From contig JAUCBJ010009044.1 in assembly GCA_032718475.1 (NCBI GenBank), positions 23,237 to 87,236 on the forward strand: a stretch of DNA of 64,000 nucleotides. Reading direction: 5' to 3'. Source of the stretch: Nemertoderma westbladi (lineage: Eukaryota > Animalia > Xenacoelomorpha). Both the position numbers and the translations under genes were made by a program. Below, piece by piece: positions 676 through 58,700 of this stretch (positions are counted from its first letter, which is position 1; every line of letters begins with the position of its first letter). The notes under the pieces were generated by a model. The model made no database searches, was not told the DNA's origin, and saw nothing but the letters and a program-made list of their open reading frames with translations.

Positions 676-707
<32 letters not shown>

Positions 708-760
708 CTATATATATACTATATATATATACTATATATAAATAAATTCGACATACTACA

Positions 761-34249: not shown

Positions 34250-35613
34250 CCCTATTACCACTGGGGCGGGGGGCCGAATCGGCCCCTTCCTAGTTTTTAG
34301 TTGCTGTAACTATGCAACCACATTACGTACCGGCCCAATTTTTTGTGAGAATTAGCCAAATTTAATGCCGCATCTTTTGCAAATAACGCCGTTGCAATTG
34401 GATTTCTACTTTTCGATGTGGGTGCCACCTCAAAATTTGGTCTCCAGCACCAAATTTTTTGAAATTTTCGAATTTTACAAAGTCATTCGTGATTTAGTAA
34501 TTATTTATGTTTGGGCTATTTTTATTTATTTTTATTGGTTTGGATCACTCTAATGCTCTATACAAGTATGTAAGTGTAGTGGTACGTCATTTTTGGAGCA
34601 CCAAATTTAGGGCGTGGCACTTTAAAATTTCAAAATTACTTTATTCGGAAAATTTACTAAAGTTCTGATTTCTAAGCATTTTTATTGGTTATCTGGAGCG
34701 CTGAATCGATTAAAAGTAGTATAGAAGCCTGAAGACTTAGTGGTTCGCCATTTTTGGTGCACCAAAATTAGGGCGTGGCACTTCAAATTTTGAAAAATAC
34801 GAGATTCGGAAAATACACTAAAGTTTTGATTTGCAAAGCATTTTTATAGGTTTTCTGGAGCCTTGAATCGATTCAAAGCAATATAGAAGCCTGAAGACTT
34901 AGTGGTTCGCCATTTTTGGTGCACCAAAATTAAGGGCGTGGCACTTCAAATTTTGAAAAATACGAGATTCGGAAAATTCACTAAAGTTTTGATTTCAAAT
35001 TAATTTTATAGGTTTTCTGGAGCGCTGAATCGATTGAAAGTAATATAGAAGCCTCAAATTTTTCAAAATTTTAAGTGCCACGCCCTAATTTTGGTGCACC
35101 AAAAATGGCGAACCACTCAGTCTTCAGGCTTCTAAATTACTTTCAATCGATTCAGCGGCCCAGAAAACCCATAAAGATGCGTTGAAATAAAAAAATTAGG
35201 GGCATTTTCTGAATATCTAATTTTTCAAAATTTGAAGTGCCACGCCCACTTCTTATAGGTGCACGAAAAATAGCATCCACTTCAATTTTTGGAAGTGGAA
35301 TATAATCACATTCGATTCAGCGTCTTGAAAAACCTACTAAATCTAGCCAACACTGCCACACTATTAGTTTTTAGAAAACGAAAAATTTTGTAATTTTGTC
35401 CTGGGACTACTTTTATTTTTCATCAAAATTATGAGTCCCTGCTTATGAAATTTTAACTTTTTAAGGTTTGGTAGTGTTCATCTATAGTTGTTTCACCAAC
35501 AGCCCAAATTTTGTAGCATTTCATTGGACGACTACAAAAATATAGTGGGTGGGCCGAATCGGCCCCCCCCCCCCAGTGGTGCTAATGGTCAAAACACCCC
35601 AGTGGTAATAGGG
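34250..35613. mobile_element. piggyBac-like non-autonomous element (1364 bp) nested in the retrotransposon leader
   Basis: TTAA|CCCTATTACCACTGGGG ... CCCCAGTGGTAATAGGG|TTAA; internal ~165-bp direct and inverted subrepeats (TTTTGGTGCACCAAAATTAGGGCGTGGCAC). Confidence 0.88.
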
Positions 35614-36105: not shown

Positions 36106-39100
36106 ATGTCTGACACAAAGCAAAACCTGTCAGACAGTCTCCTAGATACAACCATCTGTGACCCAGACAGGAGTGTGGAATGTGTGAGACCGAAGTTCAA
36201 TTCACCTCCTACTGTAAGAAAGATCATCCCTCCAGTAGTAGTATCAGACCCTAGGCTAGTCCAACACCGTAGGTCTATCATAGGCACTCGAGCTCAGGTC
36301 AAGTGGGACCAAGAAGCAGCAGAACAGCAGCAACACTCGAGCCGAGAACTTATTTCTCAGCGGCCCGACAGCTCCAGTAGTGCGGATACTGTAGAGCTGA
36401 CACCCGAGCGCGGAGCAAAGATGACGGAGGCGGTTTATTCGGATCCCCTTCTCATCCTTCCTGCGGCCGTACTCACTAGGTTATTGATTGCGGTGGAAGA
36501 ACACCAGATCGATTGGGCGAGAAGTAAGCGATCGACCAAGGATAGTTATGCGGGATACACAAGGGAAGAACTGAAGTCTATTGTCGAGTCGCAATGGAAC
36601 TTCCCCGGAGCCGGAATCCCGTTTGACTTATCGGAGGCTGCCTGGGAAGACATACACAGAATGGGAGTGACAAAGGAAACCAGCAATCCAGCTGTGTGGA
36701 AGAGGTCAGCAGCAGGATACGTACATGGATTCTTCAGCTCTATGGAGCGATTAGAGGAACAACTGTTTCGACAACCCCAAGGACCTCAAGAGCAGGGAGA
36801 GCTGCTTTATCAAGTTAGAGAAAGAATTCTAAGAATCAGACTAATCTTATCGGCCTTTGAGGAGGCTTCGAAAAGAAGACAAGACACGTCGTTGCAAGTT
36901 GCCGTAAAGACTTGGTTTCAGCGGGTGAGTCTCAAAGTTCAAGGAACTGCCCCGTGGAAATCTCAGTTGGCTGAGCGCTCAACCCATGGAGAATCAACAG
37001 ACGCTACCTTTTCCCAAGTGGAAAGTGAAGTGACAGCAGAAAAACCGCATAAGAGGGATGCTATTGACATCTATCTGTCAGACTATCAACGATTTGTAGG
37101 TGACGAAGAGTTGAGGAGACGGCTGTCTGGACTTCGCCCTAATAGTGAAGGAGCCAAGCTTGTGTTGGACGCAATCGATGTGGAAATGTTAGCTGCGAAC
37201 CAAGGTAAATTTGATGAAAGACTCCGCATCGCTAGGGTCCAAGAAGAACAAGTCAAGAAAAAACGTATAGAAGACAGAAAGACAACAGCAGCGGCAGCGG
37301 CAGTGGCAGTGGCCGAAGCGGAAAGAAAAGCGGCAGTGGCAGCGGCCGAAGCGGAAAGAAAAGCGGCAGTGGCAGCGGCAGAGGCAGTGGCAGAAGCAGA
37401 ACGAAGAGCATCTGAAGAGACCACCCAACTAGAGTTGGAAAATATTCAAGAGAATCAAGACTGCATAAATAAACAGTTAACAGCTAGTCAAATGCAGATG
37501 ATGAGTCGATCTACTCCCAAAAGACAGGGATATACATCATCTGAGGAAGGCGATACCACCGATCCTGAAGGCGGAGGAAATAGATCTCGTCTAAGCAGAC
37601 GTAGAAGAATGTCCCACCGTCAGAAATTGCCTGATTTGCCCCCAGCTGTTAGAAGGCAACTAACTAACACAGACTTAGGTAGTACAGAACCCACAGACCA
37701 AATAATTAAAATAGAAAGACTCCCTACTATAGTAGATGAGCCTGAAATAATTAGGCCTGTTCTTGAAACCACCCCTTCGGTGATAGAGACACCTGTGCTC
37801 CCAGAACCTACCTCTAAATTCCCTTTGCACAGCACTAAACTACCTGTGCCCCACAAAACAACCCCTGAGACAGTTCCTGTCCTGGACTCCGAGCGAAATA
37901 TCAATGATTTGTCGCCCGTTGTCCCTCGTCTACCCGCTACTACGTTGGCGGCTCCCGCTTCGGCGGTCGAGTGGGTGGATGAGGGGCGGCGGGGGATGAA
38001 TCTCCTGCTCGGGCAGATGCAGGAGACTGTTCATCAGTTTAAAGGAACAGTAAGGGAAAGTAGGTTAGAGTTGCAAAAAGTGCAGCAGAGTATCGCATTA
38101 GAACGCGATAAATTGGTAAATAGACAAAGGGGTATACCACCACCCCCTGTAACAATGTGTCAACCTGTTAGGTCTGAAGTATTTCATGCGCAAGGTGTGG
38201 AGCCTACACGCATCTATACTGCTAGTGAAGGGGAAACTCCTATAGTAAACCCTATTAAGGGTAATTATAAACCTGTTGACAATGATATTCCCTATAGACC
38301 TGATCATAATCCGAGAAATTTATATACCGATAACTCGATATTAAATAATACGATGGCCCAAGAAAGTTTTACGCATCAAATGGCTAGAACCGAAGCCCGT
38401 CAAGCGGTAAAGGTGGGAGAGATAGTCAAGTACAATGGAAATGAGATGAAATGGTTACCTTTTAATGAATATTACAAAGATAACATACAGAACTCTGTGC
38501 TATCTAACGGAGAGAAACTTATATTCCTCATCGAGTGCTTGGAAGGATCTCCCAAGTTAATGGCGTTAAAGTTTATTGGACATCCAGATGGATTAAGACA
38601 AGTTTGGGATACCCTAAACATCAGGTATGGTAATAGGAATAACATAGCTAAGTATTTGTATGCAAAATTGGTAGCGCCCCGAAAGTTCATTAGCAGCGGG
38701 ATTATAGAGTTTTCCGATGAGATTCAAGAGATCTGTAGACAATTAGATTGGCTAGGTAAGTCTCATTAATATCAGAGTTCTATGGTTATTGGAGCCGTGG
38801 CCTCTACTTTACCTAAGGGTGGAGTAGGCACCATCTGGGATAAGAAAGTGTTATATATAATGGAACAACAACGACGAGACCCTACCATGGTCGATCTCAT
38901 GTCATTCTTAGATGGAGAAGTGAAATTACAGCTCCTAAAGCAGTCCAGAGAGAAGACACCGGAAAACAAGGTAAGTGAGAAACCCGTTTCTAGGAGAAAG
39001 GTAACACCAGTGTGTTATACCGACGACGGCGAAAGCCAGGCTTCTCAAGAAGAAGACAGCGGAAAAGACACTGAAAGATCTTATTATGTCAACAAAACGC

Positions 39101-42100
39101 CTAAAGACGTATGTAAATTCAAGTCTCGAACCAATGACAGGAGAGAACAGGTAAGAAAAACGCCTCCTACGTCTCCTAAGAGAATTCAGGTAAGAAAGCC
39201 CGAAGAAAGAACGAGTGTGCACAACGTTACTCAAAATAAGGTAAGTAATATCAAACCGAAATGTGCGCTGTGTGACGGGACCCACCGTTTGAATGTGTGT
39301 GATGAATTCCTAAAGAAATCATTAAAGGATAGACGGGAAGTCATGTGGGATAAGCGGTTGTGTTATAATTGCCTCAGACAAGGACATCAACGGCGAACCT
39401 GTTACTCCGACGCAAGGTGTGCGAAGTGCGGCGCAAAACATCATCTCTTGTTGCATACTGAATTCGAACGAAACAGCCCGAGTCAGGTAAGTGATTCTGA
39501 ACTACATGTCCAATTCAGTGATGTGAACGACACTGACCAAAGTTCTGAGATGGAAGGATTCTATACGGACGAATTCTCCGATGAAAACGAATCCTGTTAC
39601 CTGATAAATACCGCAGTGTATCGAGCACTTATGTATGAAAAGGACACCGATAGCGAGCTCCCCCTAACTACTTCTGACCGACAACCATCTTGGAAAGCAC
39701 CAACTTCCAATGTAGGAATCCGAGAATTTCCCGTAGTACAGTTGAGGGTCCATGGACCTAAAAGGAGTTATATAGTGAACGCCCTCCTTGACTCCGGTAG
39801 CACAGGAACATTCATCGACAAAGAACTAGCCGAAGACATCTTTGCTGGACAACCCAAGTTCCGAACTAAGTTAAACATGTCAGGAATTATGCAGGTTTGG
39901 AAATCTACAGTAATAGCGGATTATTATGTAGGTGCGTTGTCCACCCCCCAGGATGAACTAGGAGAACACAGTATAAGGTCAGTAAAAATGGTGGCGATAA
40001 AGAACTTCGCTACCAGCCAAGTAGAACCTTATAACTGGGATGAGGACGATTCCACCCAGCAGCTTAATATACCTAGATTCAACACAGATTACCCTGGAGT
40101 GCAAATACTCATCGGCCATAATGCGCATGAGGCGCTTGAGACATTGGAGAAACGGCCTGCTCAACCGCAACCACTACAAGCCTATGCGGGAAGAACTAGA
40201 GTGGGTTGGTACTTTACTGGCCCTTCCTATAGAACTCTCATGGAAAGATTACCAAAAGAACAGGTATATCAAGTAAAGGAATGGGAAGTAGAGAGCAGTG
40301 AGGTAGATGACCCAACTGAGGGAACACCATACTCATCAGATAATGACGATATCCACCAACTCTTCGACGAGGAGAATACCATCGATCTCCTTACGGAAAA
40401 CGAGACTTGGCAAAACCAAGTGAACCTCTGTCAACTCATTCGTCCATCAGGACAAGTCGACTATAACGACGAACTGAATGACGTAATCGAGCGCTATAAT
40501 GCGAAGACTCGAGATGAACACGCCGTACGATTCTTTACTCAAGAGGCTGTAGAGCCCAATTCCTACGATAAGGCCCTATCGGTAGAAGAAGAAAGAGCCA
40601 AGCAGATCCAGGAGACAACTACACGTTTTCTTAAAGATCAAGGTAGATATGAAATCGGTCTCCCATTCCGAAAGCGAGAACCAAAATTCATAAACAACCG
40701 ACCCTTGGCGGAGAAAAGAATTGCTCAACTACATCGACGCCTTACGGCAAATGCTTCAGATAAAGAAATGTATCAGACTCAGTTGAAGAAATTTATTAAC
40801 AAGGGATATGCGGAGCGAGTACCGGAAGAAACACCCCTAACTGAGAGAACGTACTATTTAACACATCATTACGTTCCCAAACCCGGTAAACCCCATGAGG
40901 TACGAGTAGTATTTGATGGCTCCGCCCTCTACATGGGCCAATCCCTTAATTCCGAGTTGTTACCAGGACCCAACTTACTCCAATCCTTGTTGGGAATACT
41001 CTTAAGATTACGACAATATTCAATCGCTTTCGCCTCCGATATAGAAGGCATGTTCTTACAAGTCAAGGCGCTGGATAGGGATCGAGATAGCCTACGATTT
41101 CTGTGGTGGCCTGAAGGAGACCTCAACCAGAAACCGGTGGAGTACTGGATGACCATCCAGGCCTTTGGGATCATCTCAAGCCCTTCAAACGCCTGCTCAG
41201 TGGTACGAACCACTGCTGATGACAACCGGGACACCTTCTCTAAAGAGGTGATCGACAACATCAAACGGGATATATACATGGATGACAATTTAAAGTCCCT
41301 CCCATCAGTGGAAGAAGCCATTGAAGTCGCCAAAGGAACGGTAGAGTGCTTAAAAAGAGGTGGATTTCGATTAACTAAATTCACCAGCAACTCCCGTGAG
41401 TTTCTGGAATCGATCCCGATAGAAGATCGAGGAGCGAAGGATCTAGACCTAATCAAAGACGATCTTCCAGAAACCAAAACACTTGGTTTGAAATGGGACA
41501 CAGAGAGAGATATCCTGTTTTTCCAACTCAAACAGCGAGATAATCCAGTTCGGACTAAACGGATTTGTTTAAGTATCCTGAGCACTTATTTCGATCCATT
41601 GGGATTTATTAGCCCAGTTATATTGATTGCTCGGAGTTTAGTACAACAAATGTGGCTTGAAAAGGGAGAACTATTAAAGAAGTGGATGAAATGGGAAGAT
41701 TCTCTACCAGCCATCGAGAACTTTATAATTTCCCGTTCATATTTTGGTCATGTTCTCCCTACGTATTCCTATTAACTCCATGTGTTTGGAGACGCCAGCG
41801 ATATGGGAATAGGTATAGTAGCCTACCTGAGAGTGGAAACTCCGGATGGAATCAAAGTCGCCTTGATTACCTCTAAGGCATTGATAAACAACAAGTTGAA
41901 AGTTCCTCGAGCGGAGTTAAAAGCGGCTTTATACGGTACAGCCATCGGCCGGAATGTAACAGAACAGATCGAATATCCACTGGAGAAAACTGTCTATTGG
42001 ACCGATGCTTTACTCGTGTTGGAGTATATAACCAATGAAGTCTGTCAGTTCAGCGTCTTCATTACCAACAGAGTAGCCATTATACTTAGTCGCACGAAGA

Positions 42101-44128
42101 TGGATCAATGGAGACATTGCCCCGGAACGATTAATCCAGCAGACATTGCCTCTAGGGGAGCAACTCCACAAGAACTGATAGATACTACAGACTGGTTAGG
42201 TGGACCCGACTTCCTAAGCAAAGAAGAGGATGAATGGCCTCCTCATCTTACTACAGCGGAGATTAGACAGGCCAAGGGAGCGGAGAAAGTCAAACCTAAA
42301 ACTCGGGCGAGTAAATCGAAGTTATTTAAACCCGTGGTAGATCTATCTGTACTACACACTTCTGGAGACGACGCTTTGGATCCGAAACCCACAGCCACAA
42401 ATAAGTCTGTTGTGGAAATCAGAGAGAAGGATTGGAAATCTGGAATACCAGACGTCTCGCAAGGACTCTCACCTCTCCTGCAGAGAGCGATATATCACTA
42501 CAGTTCCTGGAATCGGCTCTGTAAAGCCGTTACATATTTAAAGCGATGTTTTCATCATCACTACTCCAGGGCGAAGACCAATAGTGATACCGCTCCACTG
42601 ACATCGGTGCAGGTCCATGTTGTTAAAGATCTTCCCAAATATAAGATATCCGACAGGTTTCTGAAGGAGAAGATCAGTTATCAGGAGCATGAAGAAACCA
42701 ACAAGCAGATGCTGAGACTCCTGCAATGCTATGAGGATTCCGATAACTATTTCCTGTTGTTGAGAAATCCACAGATGCGCTTAAGGGATCGTTTCTCTTG
42801 CACAATGATAGATGGGTTGATACGTGTTGGAGGGAGATTAACTAATGCTCCATTATCCTTTGACACTAAGTTTCCCATACTCATTAGAAATCTTGAAATA
42901 CAAATCAAGATGATTGTAGATGTTCACAGCAAACTTTATCATGCTGGTAGAGAACGAGTTCTTAGCGAAATTCGAACTCGCTATTATTTTTATAAACCCC
43001 GTAGAGCTCTGAACCAAGTTCTTAGGAACTGCATACCCTGTAGGAAAGTATTCAGTAGGCCTTTAACACAGCGAGAGGCAGAATTACCTAGGGAACGAGT
43101 AAGCTTCTATGAACCACCCTTTACTAATACCGGTGTAGATTTATCTGGCCCTATTGAAGTATATCGTGCTAGGACTATAGTCAAGAGATGGTGTGTCATC
43201 TTTGTTTGTATGACTTGTAGAGCTATCCATCTCGATATGGTGAACAATTTATCTACCAACAGCTTCCTATTGAGCTTACGACGACAGATCGCTCGCTTTG
43301 GAACTAGTAACACGATGAGATCTGATAAGGGAACGAACTTCATTGGTGCCAACAATGAAATCAAAGCTTACGTCAAAGATTGGAACCAAAGACAGGTGGA
43401 CGATCAGCTAAGGGTAACAGCGTCTAGCTGGACCTTCAACGCCGCCGACTCCCCTTGGTGGGGAGGAGAGATTAATCAGGAGCGTGAAGACCGCATTTCA
43501 CTTCATAGTGCCGTGCCGCGCGTATCTCACCGACGAACTTTTGCGGATGTTAATGGAGGAAATCGCCGCCTATCTCAACGAGAGACTGCTTATGCCAGTC
43601 TCATCGAGTCCCGATTCCCTGGAAGCGCTAACACCCGCGCACTTCCTACTGAAGAAACCTGTAGCCATGCTCCCACGATCGGAAATCACAGACGGAGATG
43701 AATACTGCCGGCAAACTTGGCAACTTATGCAGTTGTTATCCCGTCGTTTCGCTGACCATTTCGAAAAACATTATCTGCCCACGCTACAACTTCGAACTAA
43801 GTGGTTTGCGCAGCAAGAAAACGTCAGCGCTGGAGACATGGTCCTTATTGTGGATTCAGATCTTCCACGTAAGCGGTGGCAGACGGGTCGTATCATCGAG
43901 ACTCACATCTCGGATGATGGTTTGGTGCGATCGGTAGAACTCGTCGTCATGTGACGTAACTTCAAGAAACCTGGAATTGTCTTCGAGACACAGCAGCTCA
44001 ATCGCCCAGTTGGTCGTTTATGTTTGCTGGAAAGAGACAGAGAACTCTCCGGAAACTATGGAAGGCAAGATACTCTTCCCACGACCACCTCCCTAATCCA
44101 ACCAACATCTAGGGACTCCCCAACGTAA
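36106..44128 (+). pseudogene. BEL/Pao gag-pol polyprotein, disrupted (TAA 38767, TAA 41773, frameshift near 43470, TGA 43952)
   Basis: ORFs 36106, 38782 and 41782 share one frame. Gag CALC..H..C / CYNCLRQGH..C / CAKCGAKHHLLLH; protease LLDSGS; RT YMDD; RNase H LHVFGDASD; integrase H..H..CIPC, GVDLSGP, SDKGTNFIGA; C-terminal YLPTLQLRTKW...RPVGRLCLL. Confidence 0.92.
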
Positions 44129-45760
44129 CAGCGTCTGGAGTGGGTGTGTGACTATATTATTTTATATTCTTATTATTTTATATTTATGTATGTATTATTA
44201 TGTAATTTTATTATAATCGTTTTCTTTAATTTTATTTAGTAGAATGTTATTTTAGCAATTATTTAGTAGATTAGTGCAATATATATTAGTGTTTATTACT
44301 TAATTACTTATATATTATATATTTAGAGCGACGGCGAGAAATAATTCTTTTTCTCTTTCCTTACTGTCCGTATTACATTACAAATACGTAACTACAGTAA
44401 GATGAAATATCCGTACTTATTAAAGTACAATAAAGCTCCTACTATATTCAAGTATTATTGGTAAAGTAGAGTATTAGGAATGCAAAATTCAGATCCTCGT
44501 GTCTCGGCTAAACCAAGCTCTGGGTAGACCTTGGAAACGACTTGCCTCTTCTCACTGACATTGCTTCTTGCGATATTGCTCTCATACCGTATATTAAATA
44601 ATACATATAGTAGCGTGATGTCCCTTTAACAGTAGCGTACAACGCAAATAAATCTGTTAAACCCTTTGACCATCTGTAATTCTAGTCGATTAAGATATCG
44701 CGGCACCCACCAATATACTTGAAAGACAAAATTCTAGAATCAGTGGTTAACGTCCCCAGACAAGTTCTGGAATAAACCGGTGCCCATCTTAAATATTAAT
44801 TATTAATATTTATAAAATCTGTCAAATTTCAGATACTTTAAAATTCTAGTCGATTAAGATATCGTAGCACTTACCGATATTCTTAAAAGACAAAATTCCT
44901 AGAATCAAGGATCCCAGTCCCCAGACATGTTCTGGAATAAAATTGTGTCTATTTAATATTAAATAATAAATTTTACGGGAATAAATTTAAATTCATATTT
45001 TAATGAATTTGATAAATTGTTATTTTTATACAATTTATAACATTCCCAAAATTACATTAATTAATAGATCATGGGAGCGGAGATTCACCCTATTAAGTAT
45101 ATTAGTGTGCGAGAATCTCCAATATATAGTCAATAGCCGATAAAATTCATAAAATCATGTATAAAGGGGATATTGACAATTAAAGAATTACTATTAAATA
45201 GCATCCCAGATCTGTATGCATGAGAATTACCCTAATTCTACCGCTAGCTTTCCATAATGTCACCATAGCAACAACCACGCTAGAATTCGAAGTGAGTTAA
45301 AAGAACAATAGAAAGCTTGCCCCATTGAATAGCATAGGGAATAAATAGCACACTGTTAGTATCCAAGGATACATAATAATAACGTGGCATTCTGGAAGGC
45401 ACTTGACTAACGGACAAATTTCCCGAATGTGTACAATTTGTGACAGTTGTGTGGAATTTGTGCGTTTATAGGTGAATGTTACTACTAAAGTGTGTTTACA
45501 GTAGCGAGTCGCAATTGTGAAAGTAGCCCTAACTCTGCAGCAAGAACCTGAAGTAAATCTAAGCCTTTGGGACGGACAGTGGAGTGACTTGTGCCGGTTA
45601 TCGTTGTCGTTGTGTAGCTTCTACGTTGGCGAAAACACAGCGACGACAGTACATCGGCGCTGAGGATCTTGCACTGTCCGGGGGCAGAGAGGGGTAGGCA
45701 GCGACGCCCGCTAGCCTAAATATAAACTCATTATAATATTGATAAACTCATACAGCAGAT

Positions 45761-48700
45761 ATGACTGAGTTGATAGAAGAGGATCTTGGTATCAGGGAGC
45801 GATATACTCTACCTTTACAAGCGTTTGTTGATAGCTTGATACACGGTGACGCTGGTCCAACTATTACGGAGGACGATGGTCGTTATATCGAACCGCCAAT
45901 GTCCCAGGAGCAACTTACGCGTGAATTGGATTATAGAAAATTCACCGCTCGCTATACGCATCGTAATACTGGCCATCCTATCGATTTACACGATACGGAC
46001 GATGTAGACACCGAAAGGGAAATGGTTTTATTTAAATATCATACCCAGCGGAGTCGGAACGATAAACCGAGAATAGAACACGAGAATTCTATTCGAAACA
46101 GACTCGAAAGGGAAGACGTTGAAGAGCCGGATAAACGCTGCGACTTCAACGATTATCTGGAATTCCTGAGAGAAACATATCTCAATATTGCCAGTCAACA
46201 AAATCTAGAAACTCGATATCCTCAAGGTATACATCATGACCCTATGATAGAACTCAAACGACTCTATTTCACTATGATGTATCTTACCGCCGATCGACCG
46301 CTACCTGTCGTCCCAGATAGCTTCGAACAGATGGAGGAATATTGTGAAACTGGAGAACGATCACCCGCGTTTCCCCTGCAGGACGTGCGTCTTTGGTATT
46401 ACTGCGATGAATGCCCTAGACCCAATCAGCAAACGGAAAGACATAAACATCCGCGGAGACGTTGCGCTAAACACAGTTTTACACGATATACTTATGGAAG
46501 TTTCGAGCGAAACCTGTTCGACGTATCACCTACGCTCGCTCGACTCAAACAATCCTTGAATAAACCAATGATCAGAGTTCCGGAATACTCGGTCAGACCT
46601 CCTCATTCCTCAGTGAGACCTCAAACGCTTGATCCTAATAGTATAACGGATCCCCCTGAACTGTACTCACTATTTAAAGATCTTGTGTTACCCGAACAGT
46701 TGATCGGTGGCACTCCGGTAGTGGGCTCACTAGATATTTGCCAACCTTACCTAGCCGGATTAGGACGCGGTCATCTAATATCGCCGTTTAACCCGTACAA
46801 CCGTCCAGGCTTAACCCCGATACAACCCGTTACTGAAGTCGAAGAGAGTGTTGTCCGAAACGCGTTAGATGCTATTCGGCAGAAGATCGGAAAAGGAACT
46901 TACGATTGTTTAGAGAAACGCAAATTGCAGCAACAAGTTCAAGCGGTGAAAGAATTAGCTTTACCCCAGTTCGATAGAGAAATCCAGAATCTCGAGGAAG
47001 ACATCGAACGTGGACGAACCTACTCTTTACAAGAGTTCCTAGACGAGCGTTTACAACAACAAGCGGAGGAAAATCAGCTCGAGGAGAAACACATAGAAAT
47101 GGATGAGAGAGAAGAAGCAGCTTTAGCCCAGCCAGAAGCTCAAATTCTTATGACGGATATCTATTCTAAAACCATCATCCATCCTTCGATGGTTCCCCAT
47201 TTCGGAGACAAACTCTTCGCCACGGCACAGCCTCAACCGGTTGATATCAACCTAAGATCTCGAGATCTTATCGCTGACACTCCCATGTTGCAACGTCCGC
47301 CAATCGAGGCCGCTCGTGTCGATGGTATACTCGTTGAACCTCCGGACAATAGAGCGGATCTTGTCCATCGTATGGTACACAATGTTAAGATACGCGCTAG
47401 ACCTTTACCGAACTCGTTTTATGGGATCAAAGATCACCCTTATTACGTCAATCTAACGCAATATTACATGGTAAAACCGGAAGATCCTACACATAGTCTG
47501 AGGTTTCTACCACTAATAAATCCTCTCGATCTTGTCGAACTCGAACAACTGCAGAAACATCTTGATCAGTTAGTTAAAGTAAACTCATTTCGAAAACCCT
47601 ATAATGTTTCCAGGATAGAGAAAGAGACAATACCTCCGTATAATCTTGATGGATTCATCAAAACTCGATTAGTACACTGGAATCTCGACGTGTTATTCGA
47701 GGAGGAAAGAATACAACGATATGGAGATGTAGAAACATATACTACACAATATTTAAAGTATAGAGATCTACCTAATGCTAGTGAATGCGCTACCTTGTGG
47801 CATCCAGTGGGAATGACTCTAGAAAACGCCACTAAAGAGTGGAATGAGACTCTTAACGTTATCGAGATGTATGGAGTTGTCACTTACGATAACGAAGGTA
47901 GCGTTCTGGTTGGAGAACTGGGAACTACGCGAATGATACACATACGAGGACTAGCTGGTTCTACCCACGTATTTACTCGAGCGTGTTCCGATGTGATTGA
48001 TTATTCTTTTGAGACCCTTACCGAGATACAAAAGAAACTCCGACATGGACAATTCGAACTCGCGCAGCGTTACGTCACTGACACCGAGCGCAAACCGGCC
48101 ATGGGTATCGATGGATCGATGTTACCCCAGCCCGTGCTCGAGATGTTGTTTAACGAAAGAATCCTTAAAATCGGCTCAGCTGTTTATGGAGATCTCCAAA
48201 ACGACTTTCGGAACATGGAAAACATTCCATACCCTTTCGTCGATACTCAGCTGATTGCTCCCTGGGCAGAAGGCCGAGGTTTCTTCCGCACTATGTATGC
48301 AAATACACCCAGCGGCATTACTAAAGTACAACGAACCTCCATCGGACATCTTGCCTTTCAAGAATACGGATGGAATTTCAAGGTTGGAAATCCTATCAAC
48401 TACCGACAAGTATATGGAGATCATTATTCTCGATTATACTTTGACGGACCATTGACCGCCCCTGGCGCCGTGTATAGCTTTATGAGTGTTCCACTTCGTC
48501 CCTCCTTAGCTATATACACGATCTTTGAAAACGCCGCACTTGCCGGTTGGCTAGCCGATGTGTGCAGTCGTACCATACGCGCCCATCCCTTAATACTTGG
48601 AACCAAACTCGCCAAGCTAGATGAAAACAATAAATTCATCCGCTTCGAATGTTTCAGGCGCTTTCTGACTCCGTTCCGTAACGTTGATAGTCAGTTCAAG

Positions 48701-50089
48701 GACCGCGCTCTGACCAAACTCAGCCTAAGAGACTTCCGTAACGTTGATAGTCAGTTCAAGGAACGCGCTCTGACCAAACTCAGCCTAAGAGACTCAGCTG
48801 CGGAGAAGTTAGACAGCGCGGGATTCGCCCTTTTCAAGGACGTTTGTATACAGAACTTACATTCATCTGTTATACAAAGACCTCGAATACCCACGGGTTA
48901 TTCTGTCGTGGAAGTTCAGACAGTTGGTTCGCTTGCGGAGACAGCCGCACCTATCTCAGCTATGCAATTGGAAGACGAACCAATATGCTTAGAATCTGAG
49001 GCGATCCAGCCTACAGCGCCCCGGAGCAGCGATAACGACTACGTCTTGGAATGGTATCAAGGTCCACAATGTCTCACCGCATACGATTATCGGCACGCCA
49101 ACTATGTTTCTCGAAAACGTTGCCGATTATGCACATCGAGAGATCATTTCACCCCTATGGACTCAGACGTACCCTGCTCCTATTTCCACGAACAACCGAT
49201 GATGGAGATCTATTGCGCGTATTGCAGACTCAATAACTCCCACATTTTTGCAGTTTGCCCCCAATTTATGACTCAATGCCACCACTGTCAACTTAAAGGA
49301 CATGCCAGTTTTAATTGCCCTTTTAACCGCGATTTGGAAAGCGTAGATGAGATGATTACCCTGCGCTACATCCGAGCTTGGGAAGCGAACGCGGATTTGC
49401 ATTGTGAGTCACGCCATCGCTATTACCCTGGACGCACCTACGAGGGAGTTTACGCGTTCCATCCTTATCTATTCGCGTCTGTTGAACAAAAAACAAGCAC
49501 ACCGAGTTACGGACTAATGAAGCGTGTTGGTGAGTGTATTTCCACCAAATTTGTTCGAAAATATCTCAGTGAGTGTATTTCCACCAAATTTGTTCGAAAA
49601 TATCTCAGGAACGTCAATCCTAACGATATTAATTCATACCATTTGATCAATTTCATCCGTCAAGACCCTGAGTATGGCGATTTATTTATCAACTCGCACC
49701 CTGAGTTACAGGAAGTATCTCGACGGCCCTACGAATATCGAGCCAGAGAACACGAGCTGGAAAGAACCATTAAACCGAGGAAGTTTCTCACCACTCACGG
49801 TCCACCTACCGCTATTGTCCAGACAACTCGTCAGGGACCAGTAGGAGCTGCCGTCCTAAGACGCGCCCTAAAGGCCGTTAGACCTCGCTCCACTGAAGTT
49901 GATATCGATCAACCAGGTACCTCGACCGGTGGATACACCGATCGTAATCCTAAACCTTCTGATGCAATTGTAATGCACCCTTCACCCAGGAGTTATAGCT
50001 CTCCTAGTAAAGTGGCTCGCCCCAAAGAGAAAAGGACTCTTGCTAGCCTCAAAAAACTGCGTAAACGCCGTCCGCGTAAGAAAGACTAA
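45761..50089 (+). CDS. Retrotransposon accessory ORF, 1442 aa: DEDDy 3'-5' exonuclease-like domain, Cys/His zinc fingers, basic C-terminus
   Basis: Uninterrupted ORF inside the LTRs. ExoI VVTYDNEG; ExoII LPQPVLEMLFNERILKIGSAVYGDL; FVDTQLIA; ExoIII-like PLRPSLAIYTIFE; CRLC..H, CAYC.....H....CP, CHHCQLKGHASFNC; ends KKLRKRRPRKKD. The ORF is certain; the domain call is by eye. Confidence 0.75.
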   Translation: MTELIEEDLGIRERYTLPLQAFVDSLIHGDAGPTITEDDGRYIEPPMSQEQLTRELDYRKFTARYTHRNTGHPIDLHDTDDVDTEREMVLFKYHTQRSRNDKPRIEHENSIRNRLEREDVEEPDKRCDFNDYLEFLRETYLNIASQQNLETRYPQGIHHDPMIELKRLYFTMMYLTADRPLPVVPDSFEQMEEYCETGERSPAFPLQDVRLWYYCDECPRPNQQTERHKHPRRRCAKHSFTRYTYGSFERNLFDVSPTLARLKQSLNKPMIRVPEYSVRPPHSSVRPQTLDPNSITDPPELYSLFKDLVLPEQLIGGTPVVGSLDICQPYLAGLGRGHLISPFNPYNRPGLTPIQPVTEVEESVVRNALDAIRQKIGKGTYDCLEKRKLQQQVQAVKELALPQFDREIQNLEEDIERGRTYSLQEFLDERLQQQAEENQLEEKHIEMDEREEAALAQPEAQILMTDIYSKTIIHPSMVPHFGDKLFATAQPQPVDINLRSRDLIADTPMLQRPPIEAARVDGILVEPPDNRADLVHRMVHNVKIRARPLPNSFYGIKDHPYYVNLTQYYMVKPEDPTHSLRFLPLINPLDLVELEQLQKHLDQLVKVNSFRKPYNVSRIEKETIPPYNLDGFIKTRLVHWNLDVLFEEERIQRYGDVETYTTQYLKYRDLPNASECATLWHPVGMTLENATKEWNETLNVIEMYGVVTYDNEGSVLVGELGTTRMIHIRGLAGSTHVFTRACSDVIDYSFETLTEIQKKLRHGQFELAQRYVTDTERKPAMGIDGSMLPQPVLEMLFNERILKIGSAVYGDLQNDFRNMENIPYPFVDTQLIAPWAEGRGFFRTMYANTPSGITKVQRTSIGHLAFQEYGWNFKVGNPINYRQVYGDHYSRLYFDGPLTAPGAVYSFMSVPLRPSLAIYTIFENAALAGWLADVCSRTIRAHPLILGTKLAKLDENNKFIRFECFRRFLTPFRNVDSQFKDRALTKLSLRDFRNVDSQFKERALTKLSLRDSAAEKLDSAGFALFKDVCIQNLHSSVIQRPRIPTGYSVVEVQTVGSLAETAAPISAMQLEDEPICLESEAIQPTAPRSSDNDYVLEWYQGPQCLTAYDYRHANYVSRKRCRLCTSRDHFTPMDSDVPCSYFHEQPMMEIYCAYCRLNNSHIFAVCPQFMTQCHHCQLKGHASFNCPFNRDLESVDEMITLRYIRAWEANADLHCESRHRYYPGRTYEGVYAFHPYLFASVEQKTSTPSYGLMKRVGECISTKFVRKYLSECISTKFVRKYLRNVNPNDINSYHLINFIRQDPEYGDLFINSHPELQEVSRRPYEYRAREHELERTIKPRKFLTTHGPPTAIVQTTRQGPVGAAVLRRALKAVRPRSTEVDIDQPGTSTGGYTDRNPKPSDAIVMHPSPRSYSSPSKVARPKEKRTLASLKKLRKRRPRKKD

Positions 50090-50167
50090 CTGTTTAGAGT
50101 TTTTTTATATTTTAGAAACTGTGATTTTTTATATTTTATAGAATTAAATCCCATTTTCTGGGAGCGG

Positions 50168-51029
50168 TGTAAAGGCTTTTGCGGAATTAGCTGGTTATTT
50201 TCCCCGCAAAGTACTCTGTAGTTGTTTTAACGGACATAAAAAGCCGTTTCCTTACTGTACCGGTGTTTTAGTGGACATAAAAAGCCATTTCTTCTGTATG
50301 TGTACTTTAGCGGACATAACTAGCGATTTTATGTCGCAATAAGCCAAATGCTCTAAACATTGGAACTCAAATGACGACATCTACCATCAGCTGTGTCCAC
50401 GTGTAACTTTTTCTTTGTTCGTTCTTTGTTCGGTCGACCAATCAGAGCGGTTTTGACTCTGTGTTGGAGATTGTATACAGAAACTCATGCAATTCAGTCA
50501 GTGTGTGTATCTTTCTAAGCCCAGAACACCGGCTTCGGATTCTTCTGTACTTCTGTGGAAGTTTCAGACTTTAGCCAAACATTAGTAGGCTTTGGTCATA
50601 GAAACGTATAACTGTTATCGCACCACATATCCTAATCCTATCAATGCAAATCATATTGTCAACTACAAACACCGCATTTTTACTGCTATTTACTGTCGGT
50701 TATTAATTATATCAGTTGATGGAATATTGTTATATTTGGATAATATCGATAAATAATCATAAAACCCCCAATCTTCTTGATATACTGAAGGTAAGAGACC
50801 GGTTACATATAACAATTGCGACTTACATTAAAGTGGTTTTGGAGTGAATCTAATGCTATTTCATAGGCACTACATGTGTCGGTTGCTGTTCTCTTTATAT
50901 GTGACTAAAATTAGTGAAGGTCGGCAGATCGGGTGTATCAAATACTCGTCATAGGCTAAAGTCGATTTATAATCTAGAAGACATCTAAATTTGGCAGGTT
51001 AAACTGCTAAAGGTCTAAAAGCGCGAACA
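50168..51029 (+). repeat. 3' LTR (possibly truncated)
   Basis: Copy of 31344-32529 lacking ~320 bp, preceded by the purine-rich GGGAGCGG putative PPT. Confidence 0.87.
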
Positions 51030-51777
51030 GACCCCTTGGAAGAGTAAACTGCTCTTTGGGGCCGTTTCCCAGGTTGCGGGTAAGGATAACATTTCACACA
51101 TCGCAGTAATTGTGATTGTGATTTGTCTGCTTAGGCGACTGCGTATTATATTTATTTAGATAAATAAAATAAATGGGTAAAACAAACACACAGCTCTTAC
51201 ACCCCCCAAACTAACAAAAAACATAGGATCAGGACATTAAGCCCAAAGGTAGTACTCAGTCCTAAGGCGATCAAAAAACGACACAAACAAGAAAAACAAA
51301 AACGACATAAACAAATATATTAAAACATGCTCAACATACAGTTATGTATCGCACCCTAACCCTAACCTAACCGTCATACACTAAATGATACCGGTAGTAT
51401 AGTGCACAAAAGCTAAGCCTATATTCTATAGAAAAATATATGACATTTTGTCGCCGTAAAGGAGTAGAACTCGGGCAAAAATAATTAATTTTATCAAAAA
51501 TATGGTTGCCTGAGACACAGTACGCGGTAATCTGGACACCTCCTCAGCTGGACGAAGGATTACCCAAAGCCTATCTATATTGCACCAATGACCTAAAAAA
51601 TCGCACCATGAACTCTGTTACTGTACCACCTATCCCAGACAGACATCAGACCACAGAACATTGGAACCCTGTACAGTAAGTAAATCAGTGATACCAATGG
51701 AAAAACTGGTAGGTTGCTGGGGCAAACACACACAGTATAAAAAATATATTAGATTTTACAATTTGCAGTAACTATAA

Positions 51778-52168
51778 ATACTAACTAACTATAAATATAT
51801 TTATGCGCACCAACTAAAGTAGACTAACTATAAATATATGTATACACACCAACTAAAGTAGACTAACTATAAATATATATATACGCACCAACTAAAGTAG
51901 ACTAACTATAAATATATGTATACGCACCAACTAAAGTAGACTAACTATAAACATATGTATACGCACCAACTAAAGTAGACTAACTATAAATATATATATA
52001 CGCACCAACTAAAGTAGACTAACTATAAATATATATATACGCACCAACTAAAGTAGACTAACTATAAATATATATATACGCACCAACTAAAGTAGACTAA
52101 CTATAAATATATATATACGCACCAACTAAAGTAGACTAACTATAAATATATGTATACGCACCAACTAA
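51778..52168. repeat. 37-39-bp AT-rich tandem repeat, ~10 copies
   Basis: Unit AACTAAAGTAGACTAACTATAAATATATATATACGCACC. Confidence 0.92.
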
Positions 52169-52179
52169 CGCACAACGCA

Positions 52180-53006
52180 CAACGCACAGCAGCTCGGTTC
52201 ATTCCTGCGAGTATCTTTCCGTGCAGTGTTTGGTGGTGCAGCACCATGAGAAGATGGAAATTTGGCACTACAGCGCTCAGCATCTGCTACTAAAGCGTCA
52301 AACTCTTTGCGTTCCCACATCTGGATTCGACGCAGTAAAGTCGTCTCACATCTGGGCTTTTGGAAACATTCGGGTCACGCTGAAAAATAGTGACAATGAA
52401 GCAGAGGCAACGCTCCGAGGGAAGTGAACCGTTGGCAAGGCCACCCACCTCGGTAGTTAGGATGTCCACGATCTTGCGCCCAACTTTACCGTCTGGGACC
52501 ACGTAATGACGGCCATGCAGACGGGTGAGGCGTTCACGGCGGGATTCCCAGGCTTGGTCAGTCGATGAACCAGGGATGTTCAAAAACTCACCACCGAATG
52601 CCTGTTCAAGTAACTCAGGGGCCGAGGTGTTTCTGACCTGGCCAACTGAAGGACGAGGCGTGCTTGCCCCCAATGCAACTGGAGGTGAGCAAAGGCGAAA
52701 GGTCTGATAGAGGGTGGAATCACCACTGGTATCCCCATCGCTGCTCCCACTAGACGATTCGGCCTCCAAACTCTCGTCGGGATCGTAGTCAGGGCTGATT
52801 ATGGGCGAGATTTGAAGAGGACCCTGGGCCTGGTGTGTAGTACATGGGTGCGAATCTGGTGGATCGATGTTGTGGGGGTTCCTGCAACCTGACGTTGCCA
52901 GGGCGGGACAACTTGTGCAACCTTTCCCGGCCCGGGTGCAGCCACACCGACTGGTCGCACATACCCTTATAAAGCAGGAGCAGCATTTATTTAAATATCT
53001 GTCCAT
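52180..53006 (-). mobile_element. N-terminal fragment of a CRE-like (RLE-type) non-LTR retrotransposon ORF, frameshifted and truncated
   Basis: Cys-rich start CCSC...CGC...CTSC...CRNP, then W...YVVPDGKVGRK...SER...IFQRD...DVRR; after frameshifts RRIQMWERKEFDALV and ILAG..RAAVR, resembling the pre-RT region of CRE-like elements as recalled. Confidence 0.55.
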
Positions 53007-53958
53007 TTATTCGATTAACTTAGCAATATTAAATAAGCAGTTGGTGGTGCAGTAGAGTTTGTGGTAGAACAGTTTTTATCTTTATACTAGATGTTAGCTA
53101 TTTGTTTATAAAAAAAAATCAAATTTATAAAATTACAATCTCACTCATTTACCAACTCTTAAAATCAAATTAATTAATTTGAAATTTATTATATATATTA
53201 TATTATATTATACTGTATATTGGAAATTTATTATATAAGTTGGTTGGCAACAGCAGCGGTAATCCTATCCAATATATTGCGTAACTATTCATACTTAAAC
53301 AAAATGTTCCAGAACATCGTGTATTTATTAAATAGAATAAATGGCATCTAGCGAACGATACTTCTTGCAATCTTTGAACGCCTATATCTCAGCTGTTTCT
53401 CAACGAAATTCAGATATTGTTACATATTTCGAATCCTTGCAAGGCAAGCTTTTTAATGATATGAAAAAATTACGACTATTGTGAAGAATGTCCACGATAC
53501 GGAGGGTGCGATTTCGCAAAAGACACTTTTTTTAAACTCTTATAAAAAAATTTTGAAGGCAAAATCGAAAATTCCGGCTTCATGGGGTCGTCGACGGTGA
53601 GTGGAACTAGTTGATTTTCAAATTTCAAGCAATATGATAAAGATTTGTAGAAAAATCTGGGGGAGGGGGGGGGGGGGGGGGGGGTGGTCCGTGTCATCAG
53701 AAAATTACACTATATTACGGGACATGGTGTGTTTACTTTATGTTTACTTTTAGATCTTTGTTCTTACAATATGATTTTAGATTATCCAGAGCGTGTTGTA
53801 CAGATGAGATGGAGTTTCCACATATTATCAGATCGTCCGCATACATATTGGCCAAACAGCCTGCCGCTATTATAATGAGTGGCAGGTCCGCCACATATAG
53901 AATAAATAGGAGCCGTGAAAGTCTATCATCACCTTATAACGCCGATTGTTTGGGTTAT

Positions 53959-54617
53959 CGGTTCTAGAACGTACGAGCCAAGACAGACACAGACGTAAAT
54001 GACCGCGGTTCTAGAACGTACGAGCCAAGACAGACAAAGACGCAAATGACCGCGGTTCTAGAACGTACGAGCCAAGACAGACACAGACGTAAATGACCGC
54101 GGTTCTAGAACGTACGAGCCAAGACAGACAAAGACGTAAATGACCGCGGTTCTAGAACGTACGAGCCAAGACAGACAAAGACGTAAATGACCGCGGTTCT
54201 AGAACGTACGAGCCAAGACAGACAAAGACGTAAATGACCGCGGTTCTAGAACGTACGAGCCAAGACAGACAAAGACGTAAATGACCGCGGTTCTAGAACG
54301 TACGAGCCAAGACAGACAAAGACGTAAATGACCGCGGTTCTAGAACGTACGAGCCAAGACAGACAAAGACGTAAATGACCGCGGTTCTAGAACGTACGAG
54401 CCAAGACAGACAAAGACGTAAATGACCGCGGTTCTAGAACGTACAAGCCAAGACAGACAAAGACGTAAATGACCGCGGTTCTAGAACGTACGAGCCAAGA
54501 CAGACACAGACGTTAATGACCGCGGTTCTAGAACATACGAGCCAAGACAGACACAGACGTAAATGACCGCGGTTCTAGAACGTACGAGCCAAGACAGACA
54601 CAGACGTAAATGACCGC
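53959..54617. repeat. 47-bp tandem repeat, ~14 copies, inside the LINE RT region
   Basis: Unit CGGTTCTAGAACGTACGAGCCAAGACAGACAAAGACGTAAATGACCG. Confidence 0.95.
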
Positions 54618-55713
54618 TAGGCCCATATACTTGCTAAGAATTTCTTACTAATTCCAAGCCCCGATAATTTCCAGCACAGCTTTGTTCTATTTATAGATTC
54701 AAAACATTTCTGGAAGTGAATAAAGACGCAATACAAGTGACCCCTAGATGGCTGAATTGAATCTCTTATTCAGTTATAAATGTGTAAATAAATTTATAAA
54801 TTTATCTCCTTTGCCTTTATATAAAGGGATGAGATAAGATGTGAGCCACACAACTGGGCATTTGCTTGAAGAGAAACACATAGAGAAAAATGCCGATAAG
54901 AATGGTAATAAATGGCCGATCCGATTTCAGGATGTTGTTTGTGATTCCAACATTTGTTTGGTTTGTTGTTGTTTATCGCAATCGCGACTTCCGTGGCACT
55001 TATTGGGGAGTTCAGAGTCGGGTCGTAATTGTTTTCTGGCACATCCGGCATGGTTGGAGCTGGTCCTGCTGTCACTAGTTTTGAGAAGTGGCTGGCCCAT
55101 TTATCTTCTGTGATTTGGTTGGCTGTTGATTTAGATGTGTTTTTACTCTTTAGAATGTTCCAGAACTTGTCGTTTTCACATTCCTCGACAAGATTGTGTT
55201 GTTTGTTAGCCTGAAAGATTATCTTCTTGTCTAAAATTAGTTGTTTATAGTTCCGTTGACTGTTTCTGAATTGTTCACGGGATAGATCATTTGGGTTAGC
55301 TTTCATTAAATGCTGCCTTCGTTTCTTTGTGAGCACGGTGACAATTGGAGTCGAATCAGGGTTTAGGATTCCTGGTTGTTGGTGTGATGGCAGCGTTTGA
55401 GACTGCAGAATTCAGATTTGATCATGCTAGATCAATATCTTATTCATCCCGTTTCACGAATTCGTCTGGGTCTAGGAGTTGTTCTAGCTTTGTTGTATCG
55501 ATCTGTCGGGTGGGTTGAGTTCTCTGTTTCCTGTTGTTTATGCTATTTTGGAGTGTTAGATTAACAGACACCCGTTGGTGTTTAGTGTTCATAGTTTGGA
55601 TAACATCAATGGATATGTCATCCGCCGTGCTGTAATCTGTATAAACCGCATCGATGCTACTATAGATCCAATCTAGCAATGGTAAGTTGGAATATCCGGA
55701 TCATTTAGGCAAT

Positions 55714-58700
55714 GCAGCCCGAAACCATAAAGGCCCGTACTGAGTAGCTCGCCACGGCAGTCCGAAACCATAAAGGCCCGCACTGAGTAGCTCGCCACGG
55801 CAGTCCGAAACCATAAAGGCCCGCACTGAGTAGCTCGCCACGGCAGTCCGAAACCATAAAGGCCCGCACTGAGTAGCTCGCCACGGCAGCCCGAAACCAT
55901 AAAGGCCCGCACTGAGTAGCTCGCCACGGCAGCCCGAAACCATAAAGGCCCGCACTGAGTAGCTCGCCACGGCAGCCCGAAACCATAAAGGCCCGCACTG
56001 AGTAGCTCGCCACGGCAGTCCGAAACCATAAAGGCCGGCACTGAGTAGCTCGCCACGGCAGTCCGAAACCATAAAGGCCCGCACTGAGTAGCTCGCCACG
56101 GCAGCCCGAAACCATAAAGGCCCGCACTGAGTAGCTCGCCACGGCAGTCCGAAACCATAAAGGCCGCACTGAGTAGCTCGCCACGGCAGTCCGAAACCAT
56201 AAAGGCCCGCACTGAGTAGCTCGCCACGGCAGTCCGAAACCATAAAGGCCCGCACTGAGTAGCTCGCCACGGCAGCCCGAAACCATAAAGGCCCGCACTG
56301 AGTAGCTCGCCACGGCAGCCCGAAACCATAAAGGCCCGCACTGAGTAGCTCGCCACGGCAGCCCGAAACCATAAAGGCCCGCACTGAGTAGCTCGCCACG
56401 GCAGCCCGAAACCATAAAGGCCCGCACTGAGTAGCTCGCCACGGCAGCCCGAAACCATAAAGGCCCGCACTGAGTAGCTCGCCACGGCAGCCCGAAACCA
56501 TAAAGGCCCGCACTGAGTAGCTCGCCACGGCAGCCCGAAACCATAAAGGCCCGCACTGAGTAGCTCGCCACGGCAGCCCGAAACCATAAAGGCCCGCACT
56601 GAGTAGCTCGCCACGGCAGCCCGAAACCATAAAGGCCCGCACTGAGTAGCTCGCCACGGCAACCCGAAACCATAAAGGCCCGCACTGAGTAGCTCGCCAC
56701 GGCAGTCCGAAACCATAAAGGCCCGCACTGAGTAGCTCGCCACGGCAGTCCGAAACCATAAAGGCCCGCACTGAGTAGCTCGCCACGGCAACCCGAAACC
56801 ATAAAGGCCCGCACTGAGTAGCTCGCCACGGCAGTCCGAAACCATAAAGGCCCGCACTGAGTAGCTCGCCACGGCAACCCGAAACCATAAAGGCCCGCAC
56901 TGAGTAGCTCGCCACGGCAGCCCGAAACCATAAAGGCCCGCACTGAGTAGCTCGCCACGGCAGCCCGAAACCATAAAGGCCCGCACTGAGTAGCTCGCCA
57001 CGGCAGCCCGAAACCATAAAGGCCCGCACTGAGTAGCTCGCCACGGCAGTCCGAAACCATAAAGGCCCGCACTGAGTAGCTCGCCACGGCAACCCGAAAC
57101 CATAAAGGCCCGCACTGAGTAGCTCGCCACGGCAGTCCGAAACCATAAAGGCCCGCACTGAGTAGCTCGCCACGGCAGCCCGAAACCATAAAGGCCCGCA
57201 CTGAGTAGCTCGCCACGGCAGCCCGAAACCATAAAGGCCCGCACTGAGTAGCTCGCCACGGCAGTCCGAAACCATAAAGGCCCGCACTGAGTAGCTCGCC
57301 ACGGCAACCCGAAACCATAAAGGCCCGCACTGAGTAGCTCGCCACGGCAGCCCGAAACCATAAAGGCCCGCACTGAGTAGCTCGCCACGGCAGTCCGAAA
57401 CCATAAAGGCCCGCACTGAGTAGCTCGCCACGGCAACCCGAAACCATAAAGGCCCGCACTGAGTAGCTCGCCACGGCAGTCCGAAACCATAAAGGCCCGC
57501 ACTGAGTAGCTCGCCACGGCAAGCCCGAAACCATAAAGGCCCGCACTGAGTAGCTCGCCACGGCAGTCCGAAACCATAAAGGCCCGCACTGAGTAGCTCG
57601 CCACGGCAGTCCGAAACCATAAAGGCCCGCACTGAGTAGCTCGCCACGGCAGCCCGAAACCATAAAGGCCCGCACTGAGTAGCTCGCCACGGCAGTCCGA
57701 AACCATAAAGGCCCGCACTGAGTAGCTCGCCACGGCAGCCCGAAACCATAAAGGCCCGCACTGAGTAGCTCGCCACGGCAGCCCGAAACCATAAAGGCCC
57801 GCACTGAGTAGCTCGCCACGGCAGCCCGAAACCATAAAGGCCCGCACTGAGTAGCTCGCCACGGCAGCCCGAAACCATAAAGGCCCGCACTGAGTAGCTC
57901 GCCACGGCAGCCCGAAACCATAAAGGCCCGCACTGAGTAGCTCGCCACGGCAGCCCGAAACCATAAAGGCCCGCACTGAGTAGCTCGCCACGGCAGTCCG
58001 AAACCATAAAGGCCCGCACTGAGTAGCTCGCCACGGCAGCCCGAAACCATAAAGGCCCGCACTGAGTAGCTCGCCACGGCAGCCCGAAACCATAAAGGCC
58101 CGCACTGAGTAGCTCGCCACGGCAGCCCGAAACCATAAAGGCCCGCACTGAGTAGCTCGCCACGGCAGCCCGAAACCATAAAGGCCCGCACTGAGTAGCT
58201 CGCCACGGCAGCCCGAAACCATAAAGGCCCGCACTGAGTAGCTCGCCACGGCAGCCCGAAACCATAAAGGCCCGCACTGAGTAGCTCGCCACGGCAGCCC
58301 GAAACCATAAAGGCCCGCACTGAGTAGCTCGCCACGGCAGCCCGAAACCATAAAGGCCCGCACTGAGTAGCTCGCCACGGCAGCCCGAAACCATAAAGGC
58401 CCGCACTGAGTAGCTCGCCACGGCAGCCCGAAACCATAAAGGCCCGCACTGAGTAGCTCGCCACGGCAGCCCGAAACCATAAAGGCCCGCACTGAGTAGC
58501 TCGCCACGGCAGCCCGAAACCATAAAGGCCCGCACTGAGTAGCTCGCCACGGCAGCCCGAAACCATAAAGGCCCGCACTGAGTAGCTCGCCACGGCAGCC
58601 CGAAACCATAAAGGCCCGCACTGAGTAGCTCGCCACGGCAGCCCGAAACCATAAAGGCCCGCACTGAGTAGCTCGCCACGGCAGCCCGAAACCATAAAGG

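Follow-up and report, generated by a model that had tools for sequence, protein, structure and literature searches.

We describe a BEL/Pao retrotransposon of the xenacoelomorph Nemertoderma westbladi that carries, between pol and its 3′ long terminal repeat (LTR), an intact third open reading frame (ORF3), whose predicted product combines what is very probably a divergent DEDDy-type (WRN/RNase D-like) 3′-5′ exonuclease fold with three CCHC zinc knuckles. The exonuclease region is under purifying selection. The element lies in a 64,000-nucleotide stretch of contig JAUCBJ010009044.1 (GenBank assembly GCA_032718475.1, positions 23,237 to 87,236 of the forward strand), hereafter the window, to which all positions refer; features of the element are on the + strand unless stated otherwise. 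ORF3 (45761-50089) encodes 1442 amino acids (aa) with no internal stop, starts 1.6 kb past the last pol codons and ends 78 bases ahead of the 3′ LTR (50168). With a probability of roughly 45%, we interpret it as a conserved accessory gene whose knuckle-bearing product would act in trans as an RNA-directed 3′-5′ exonuclease and help the RNA of the element to survive host surveillance; more generally, the product is likely to trim or hold RNA and thereby to aid the spread of the element. An earlier note, made by a model from the letters of the window, had pointed to the uninterrupted frame between the integrase end and the 3′ LTR and to the motifs VVTYDNEG, FVDTQLIA and YTIFE (Y-x3-E in place of YxxxD), all of which are indeed present.

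The exonuclease-like domain (aa ~690-935; 47828-48565) was delimited by profile comparison and motif spacing. As a reference set, 120 bacterial loci were fetched by motif and 78 WRN-like proteins were extracted from them. PF01612 was found in five of six sampled proteins; the sixth (L003, a PKD protein) was excluded from the cleaned profile but is still included in the hmmsearch profile and in the first hhalign run. The 78-protein profile matched ORF3 at aa 788-832 with 8.4 bits (hmmsearch, E 7e-5 for one sequence), the best of 200 shuffles reaching 3.8 bits, and it found nothing above 0 bits in gag or pol. When ORF3 was aligned with its distant relative P0001 (described below) and compared with the bacterial family by hhalign, the probability was 95.6% (score 59.5) in the first run and 95.9-96.0% after cleaning of the reference set; the best of 60 column shuffles scored 25.1 with a probability of at most 7%. 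In the ESM Atlas, 25 of 30 matches to aa 660-960 belong to the PF01612 set, and NCBIfam returned an RNase D match to ORF3 (E 0.0037). The DEDDy/WRN-like fold proposed in the earlier note is thus upheld by the hhalign and ESM Atlas comparisons. The significant profile match spans ExoII and onward; ExoI was aligned only in relaxed or P0001-centred alignments.

The acidic set of the domain reads D710-E712-D811-E923 (DEDE), accompanied by Y919 and a conserved structural D828, and the motifs start at aa 706 (VVTYDNEG), 786 (SMLPQPVLEML), 805 (GSAVYGDL), 826 (FVDTQLIA) and 919 (YTIFENA). D710 and E712 align with the ExoI acids of the family and D811 with its ExoII acid (hhalign, relaxed alignments). 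For ExoIII (Y919/E923), the assignment comes from the spacing of the motif and from alignment with P0001 instead of hhalign: the family spacing L-x6-Y-x3-acid is found at L912-Y919-E923 and at the equivalent site of P0001. With WRN/EXD2-like PF01612 proteins, EXD1, Nibbler/MUT-7, Egalitarian and RNase D/Rrp6, ORF3 has in common the ExoI DxE, the core LP..L....I.K.G...D...D.Q and, on the motif reading, the L-x6-Y-x3-acid spacing; it differs from PF01612 exonucleases in the ExoIII glutamate in place of aspartate and in two insertions of ~40 residues each, between ExoI and ExoII and between ExoII and ExoIII, relative to bacterial WRN-like enzymes. Measured against the bacterial references, the glutamate is a real departure, common to two distant proteins (ORF3 and P0001). 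We give catalytic activity of the domain slightly better than even odds.

Three CCHC zinc knuckles (C1121-C1139, C1152-C1166 and C1173-C1186; the earlier note had named zinc knuckles but gave no number) are followed by a conserved extension to ~aa 1235 (49121-49465, defined by alignment with P0001 and P0002). These two proteins were the only matches in a full HMMER scan of aa 501-1248 against 1.84 billion representatives (P0001, E 1.5e-6; P0002, E 1.8e-4). P0001 has the layout of ORF3, namely an exonuclease-like domain, a linker and three knuckles at ~27% identity, keeps its DxE, D and YxxxE residues (the DEDE signature) and, on its own, matches PF01612 at E 0.047 in Pfam. P0002 has a degenerate exonuclease-like N-terminus lacking the acidic set, followed by the triple-knuckle module and its extension twice, which suggests that the knuckle module may be a mobile unit of its own. 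All twelve zinc ligands and part of the following extension are invariant in the three proteins. The knuckle profile resembles retroviral nucleocapsid, Lin28 and Air2 and weakly matches the Trypanosoma brucei mitochondrial RNase D (TbRND; E 0.41; PDB 7c42 series), in which a DEDDy-type domain is likewise joined to CCHC knuckles; TbRND, however, is a cellular protein of ~350 aa that trims guide RNAs and carries four knuckles, and the kinship is seen only at the shared modules. No further relative emerged elsewhere: three word-index homologue searches scored none among 3603, 7444 and 245 candidates, searches of viral-contig and metagenome-contig loci confirmed no relative, and tblastn against plasmids gave four chance-level rows in one search and none in the other.

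ORF3 belongs to a family of many variants. Part of the element stretch is contained in five of the seven listed read runs, none of which is registered as RNA; tens of thousands of variant contigs occur in two runs, and read contigs from 4/4 runs cover all 30 bins of 43000-52000, comprising pol, spacer, ORF3 and LTR. A one-off insertion, which the earlier note had named as an outcome that would refute its reading, does not fit the data: read contigs show ORF3 in other family copies, some of them with the domain deleted. In the exonuclease region (47780-48620), 33 of the 40 listed differences, selected by support from a total of 182, are synonymous, compared with a neutral expectation of 0.23-0.30 (p < 1e-11); the crude pN/pS from these differences is 0.06-0.09. 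None of the 40 falls at D710, E712, D811, D828, Y919 or E923, and no indel is found in the region at the 10% listing level. The joints 46104>48970 and 47099>49927/49948 reveal other copies in which the exonuclease domain has been lost through internal deletions of 2.8 kb; these are probable non-autonomous derivatives, and from them it follows that the ORF3 domain is dispensable in cis. Contigs of run X5, which carries a second organism label, also cover 30/30 bins of 43000-52000, mostly at 80-97% identity, a hint that the BEL family occurs beyond one species.

Several observations weigh against reading ORF3 as an RNA-directed exonuclease. Pfam gave no exonuclease match to the whole of ORF3 or to four pieces of it, the likeness to PF01612 lying below the Pfam cut-off, and searches of PDB sequences with ORF3, its domain, the P0001 domain and a joint profile returned no exonuclease. 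The ESM Atlas match (score 0.92) shares 165 features, fewer than the guide value of 170, and its two top clusters are unnamed. In structure prediction, the unseeded single-sequence model reached a mean predicted confidence (pLDDT) of 30, and a second model, seeded with 52 PF01612-type bacterial rows, one of 54. Matches of the seeded model to EXD1 (Z 11.1, root-mean-square deviation 3.8 over 170), RNase D (Z 10.3; TbRND is also in this list) and WRN (Z 10.1) are circular and indicate compatibility with the fold only, and its best Foldseek E is 0.023, with none below 0.02. EXD1, RNase D, Pol I, WRN and Nibbler all lie within about one Z unit (11.1-9.9), and the modelled fold does not favour EXD1, Egalitarian or Nibbler over RNase D, WRN or Pol I. 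Both hhalign and MAFFT place ExoIII elsewhere than the motif reading does. The ExoIII acid is aspartate in 77/77 bacterial references and glutamate in ORF3, so that activity may be low or lost, and the same fold serves in EXD1 as a non-catalytic RNA adaptor (PMC4712191). At the level of copies, linkage of pol and ORF3 elsewhere in the family is deduced from continuous cover, since none of the read contigs reaches from one to the other; the differences behind the pN/pS estimate were chosen by support; and over the whole of ORF3 only 14/28 listed differences are synonymous, many of the differences looking private to the present copy. In bdelloid rotifers, finally, PMC5408684 reports no clear link between DEDDy ORF3s and copy number.

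The loss of the ExoIII aspartate against all 77 references would also suit a dead or weak RNA adaptor, in which the DEDE domain and the knuckles bind the genomic RNA of the element and route it (nuclear export, germline transport) in the manner of EXD1, Egalitarian and CERV. The basic tail of ORF3, the top but tied (and circular) fold match to EXD1, and P0002, which has no acidic set yet keeps the module, point in the same direction, and EXD1 (PMC4712191) and CERV, exporter of Cer1 RNA (PMC10309623), are precedents. We nevertheless consider an adaptor rather unlikely: ORF3 and P0001, at ~27% identity, both retain the four acidic positions and the tyrosine, whereas the acidic set of EXD1 reads SDLN or AELE (PMC4712191), and no listed family variant touches the acidic residues or the tyrosine.

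Beyond its exonuclease and knuckle modules, ORF3 has an acidic start, an acidic helical stretch at ~390-455 and no domain assigned by Pfam in aa 1-680; a CxxC plus His/Cys cluster at aa 215-238 (46403-46474) is a possible fourth zinc site. Pfam found no HRDC, Lsm, SAM-like or MUT7-C domain in it. By composition, the C-terminal tail (50051-50086; KKLRKRR at aa 1431) is basic and appears nuclear-localisation-like. Two in-frame tandem duplications, one of 60 bp (48674-48793) and one of 39 bp (49530-49607), are each absent from a run X4 contig. A position downstream of pol is that of env in Atlas and Tas (PMC9094657), which would fit a fusion protein of the envelope kind found in nematode belpaoviruses. 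The protein itself makes this highly improbable, in agreement with the non-env assignment of the earlier note: the top 19-residue Kyte-Doolittle mean is 1.19, hydropathy gives no clear sign of a signal peptide or membrane segment, the N-terminus is acidic, the CCHC knuckles account for most cysteines, the tail is basic, and neither Pfam nor PDB sequences gave a glycoprotein match.

The host, as the earlier note had held, is a BEL/Pao element: Pfam on the window ORFs recovers DUF1759, Peptidase_A17 and DUF5641 in gag-pol, in the order gag, protease, reverse transcriptase, RNase H and integrase. According to the ORF list and Pfam, gag (DUF1759, 36106-38769) is cut short within its domain by the stop at 38767-38769, and the remaining gag-pol (38770-44128) comprises gag CCHC boxes, protease LLDSG, reverse transcriptase YMDD, Peptidase_A17/RNase H, integrase H2C2 and DUF5641. 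Four lesions are present in total (stops at 38767-38769, 41773-41775 and 43952-43954, and a frameshift near 43465), and the final pol-derived stop is at 44126-44128. That ORF3 is intact beside them is not significant (2.2 lesions expected, P(0) 0.12).

A single LTR pair with TG...CA ends, identified by comparison of the two (5′ LTR, 31344-32529; 3′ LTR, 50168-51029), flanks the whole gag-pol-spacer-ORF3 unit and differs by 10 substitutions in 858 aligned bases (Kimura two-parameter distance 0.012, ~1.2%). A polypurine tract (50160-50167) adjoins the 3′ LTR. The 5′ LTR contains a 322-bp segment (32111-32432) that is absent from the 3′ LTR; the loose end of a run X5 contig at 50929 resembles this segment. 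No target-site duplication was found, 31339-31343 and 51030-51034 being different, and no TGG-type tRNA primer-binding site follows the 5′ LTR (32530-32550), which may be damage in this copy. The left flank of the element is satellite and the right flank is not; one end has therefore been rearranged or the 3′ LTR cut short. Neither LTR contains AATAAA, one such signal lying 35 bases past the end of the 5′ LTR match (32564), and Rfam and tRNA scans gave no match. In the long 5′ leader, a segment resembling a miniature inverted-repeat transposable element (MITE; 34250-35613, strand undefined) has terminal inverted repeats and is bordered by TTAA at either end; it contains internal ~162-bp repeats, and its ends are presumably piggyBac-like.

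The element measures 19.7 kb, or ~18.3 kb without the MITE. ORF3 could be a helper of reverse transcription that proofreads or trims cDNA ends or priming RNA and would thereby favour so long a genome, like ExoN in nidoviruses. The usual BEL/Pao length is 4.2-10 kb (PMC3118150), so that the present BEL is about twice as long as usual; the WRN and Pol I exonucleases, which act on DNA, rank level with the others among the fold matches, the knuckles resemble nucleocapsid, and the TGG-type primer-binding site is missing. This role is nonetheless decidedly unlikely, with ORF3 lying 1.6 kb from pol and not fused to the reverse transcriptase, nothing pointing to packaging, and the absence of the primer site being perhaps copy damage.

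The AT-rich 1.6-kb spacer between pol and ORF3 (44129-45760) raises another possibility. Directly after the pol stop, a purine tract and TG (~44148) are followed by AT-rich sequence and AATAAA (44429), like a normal BEL 3′ end, and the spacer also contains a ~164-bp duplication. ORF3 and the present LTRs might thus come from another element or downstream cassette fused behind an ordinary BEL and, in the strong form of this explanation, ORF3 would not be a BEL gene. The missing target-site duplication and primer site, and the lack of a contig across the pol-ORF3 junction, would agree with such a composite. Yet the whole unit lies within one LTR pair that differs by only 1.2%, no second copy of the spacer precedes gag, and pol, spacer and ORF3 are continuously covered by reads in 4/4 runs, with no joint listed at 44148, and we judge the composite improbable. 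Its weak form, an old fusion that is now one unit, is compatible with our interpretation of ORF3 as an accessory gene; the relic-like 3′ end after pol suggests, speculatively, that ORF3 was captured by fusion to a downstream cassette. The spacer is a possible relic LTR, and possibly the promoter or splice acceptor of ORF3, with TATAAA at 45721 and AG dinucleotides directly ahead of the ATG.

Returning to an RNA-directed exonuclease acting in trans, we propose the following mechanism. D710, E712, D811 and E923 would still bind metal, the knuckles would grip single-stranded RNA and feed it to the active site, the basic tail would send the protein to the nucleus, and ORF3 would be expressed apart from gag-pol. 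An RNA-directed 3′-5′ exonuclease is favoured because in T. brucei RNase D the knuckles are needed for activity and feed RNA to the active site (PMC9181182). Action in trans would fit because ORF3 is separate and may have its own TATA box or splice acceptor, ends in a basic tail and can be deleted from copies. Because selection is seen among variants of the transposon family, we infer that the protein helped active lineages. Least certain is the substrate, which could be host small-RNA guides or tailed element transcripts whose 3′ ends would be trimmed or which would be degraded, amounting to counter-silencing; we prefer this to a role within reverse transcription.

Outside the element, tandem arrays occupy ~630-9500 (17-bp unit), ~26500-31340 (C-rich, adjoining the 5′ LTR), 51706-52246 (39-bp), 53818-54728 (47-bp) and ~55700-62200 (a further array). 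ORFs of more than 2000 aa at 652-7671 and 55673-62179 coincide with such arrays and are probably artefacts. A 238-aa ORF on the minus strand (52290-53006) with a cysteine-rich start has no Pfam match; we take it to resemble the beginning of a non-LTR retrotransposon ORF.

The earlier note knew of no description of such an architecture, but a claim that it is undescribed goes too far: DEDDy ORF3s downstream of pol were described in the bdelloid LTR elements Juno and Vesta and in Athena/Terminon retroelements (Rodriguez, Kenefick & Arkhipova, 2017; PMC5408684), as reviews repeat (PMC6431247, PMC5718144), and a later opinion paper counts a DnaQ-like domain as one of the well-known accessory domains of LTR elements (PMC6338049). 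As in the bdelloid type, the DEDDy ORF here follows pol and precedes the 3′ LTR. Compared with what PMC5408684 describes, the present ORF3 is likewise a non-env ORF past pol with a DEDDy/RNase D-like domain, retained acidic residues and no membrane segment. It differs in its BEL/Pao host, its 1442 aa, three CCHC knuckles, long N-terminus and basic tail (a comparison by description only), and in its DEDE signature, where the rotifer ORF3s show a DEED change. The additional region of the BEL elements Atlas, Cer13 and Tas, which similarly extends a BEL gag-pol at its 3′ side, is a phlebovirus- or herpesvirus-like fusion glycoprotein (PMC9094657), whereas the present ORF is separate and predicted to encode a soluble nucleic-acid-binding protein. 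In the literature covered, including term look-ups in the BEL surveys PMC3118150 and PMC8556966 and leaving Repbase, subscription papers, figures and supplements outside the search, no exonuclease ORF in BEL/Pao was found. Within that literature, a DEDDy ORF3 is in print only for bdelloid elements, and the BEL/Pao case extends the capture of such genes to another superfamily.

What DEDDy ORFs offer the element was left open in the rotifer paper (PMC5408684). It is conceivable, though unlikely, that DEDE exoribonucleases with triple knuckles form a widespread retroelement-borne family of their own and that the present member is an active suppressor of small-RNA silencing, trimming or destroying PIWI-interacting RNA or small interfering RNA guides while copies deleted for ORF3 ride along; if so, the transposon would fight its host with Nibbler/MUT-7-type chemistry that the host itself employs. 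The additional genes of BEL/Pao elements have so far been regarded as envelopes, and here we find a non-envelope, selected accessory gene of predicted nuclease type. Because strong constraint, an intact ORF and natural deletion derivatives come together in it, the role of retrotransposon DEDDy proteins, whether counter-silencing, routing of RNA or proofreading, becomes directly testable with one protein.

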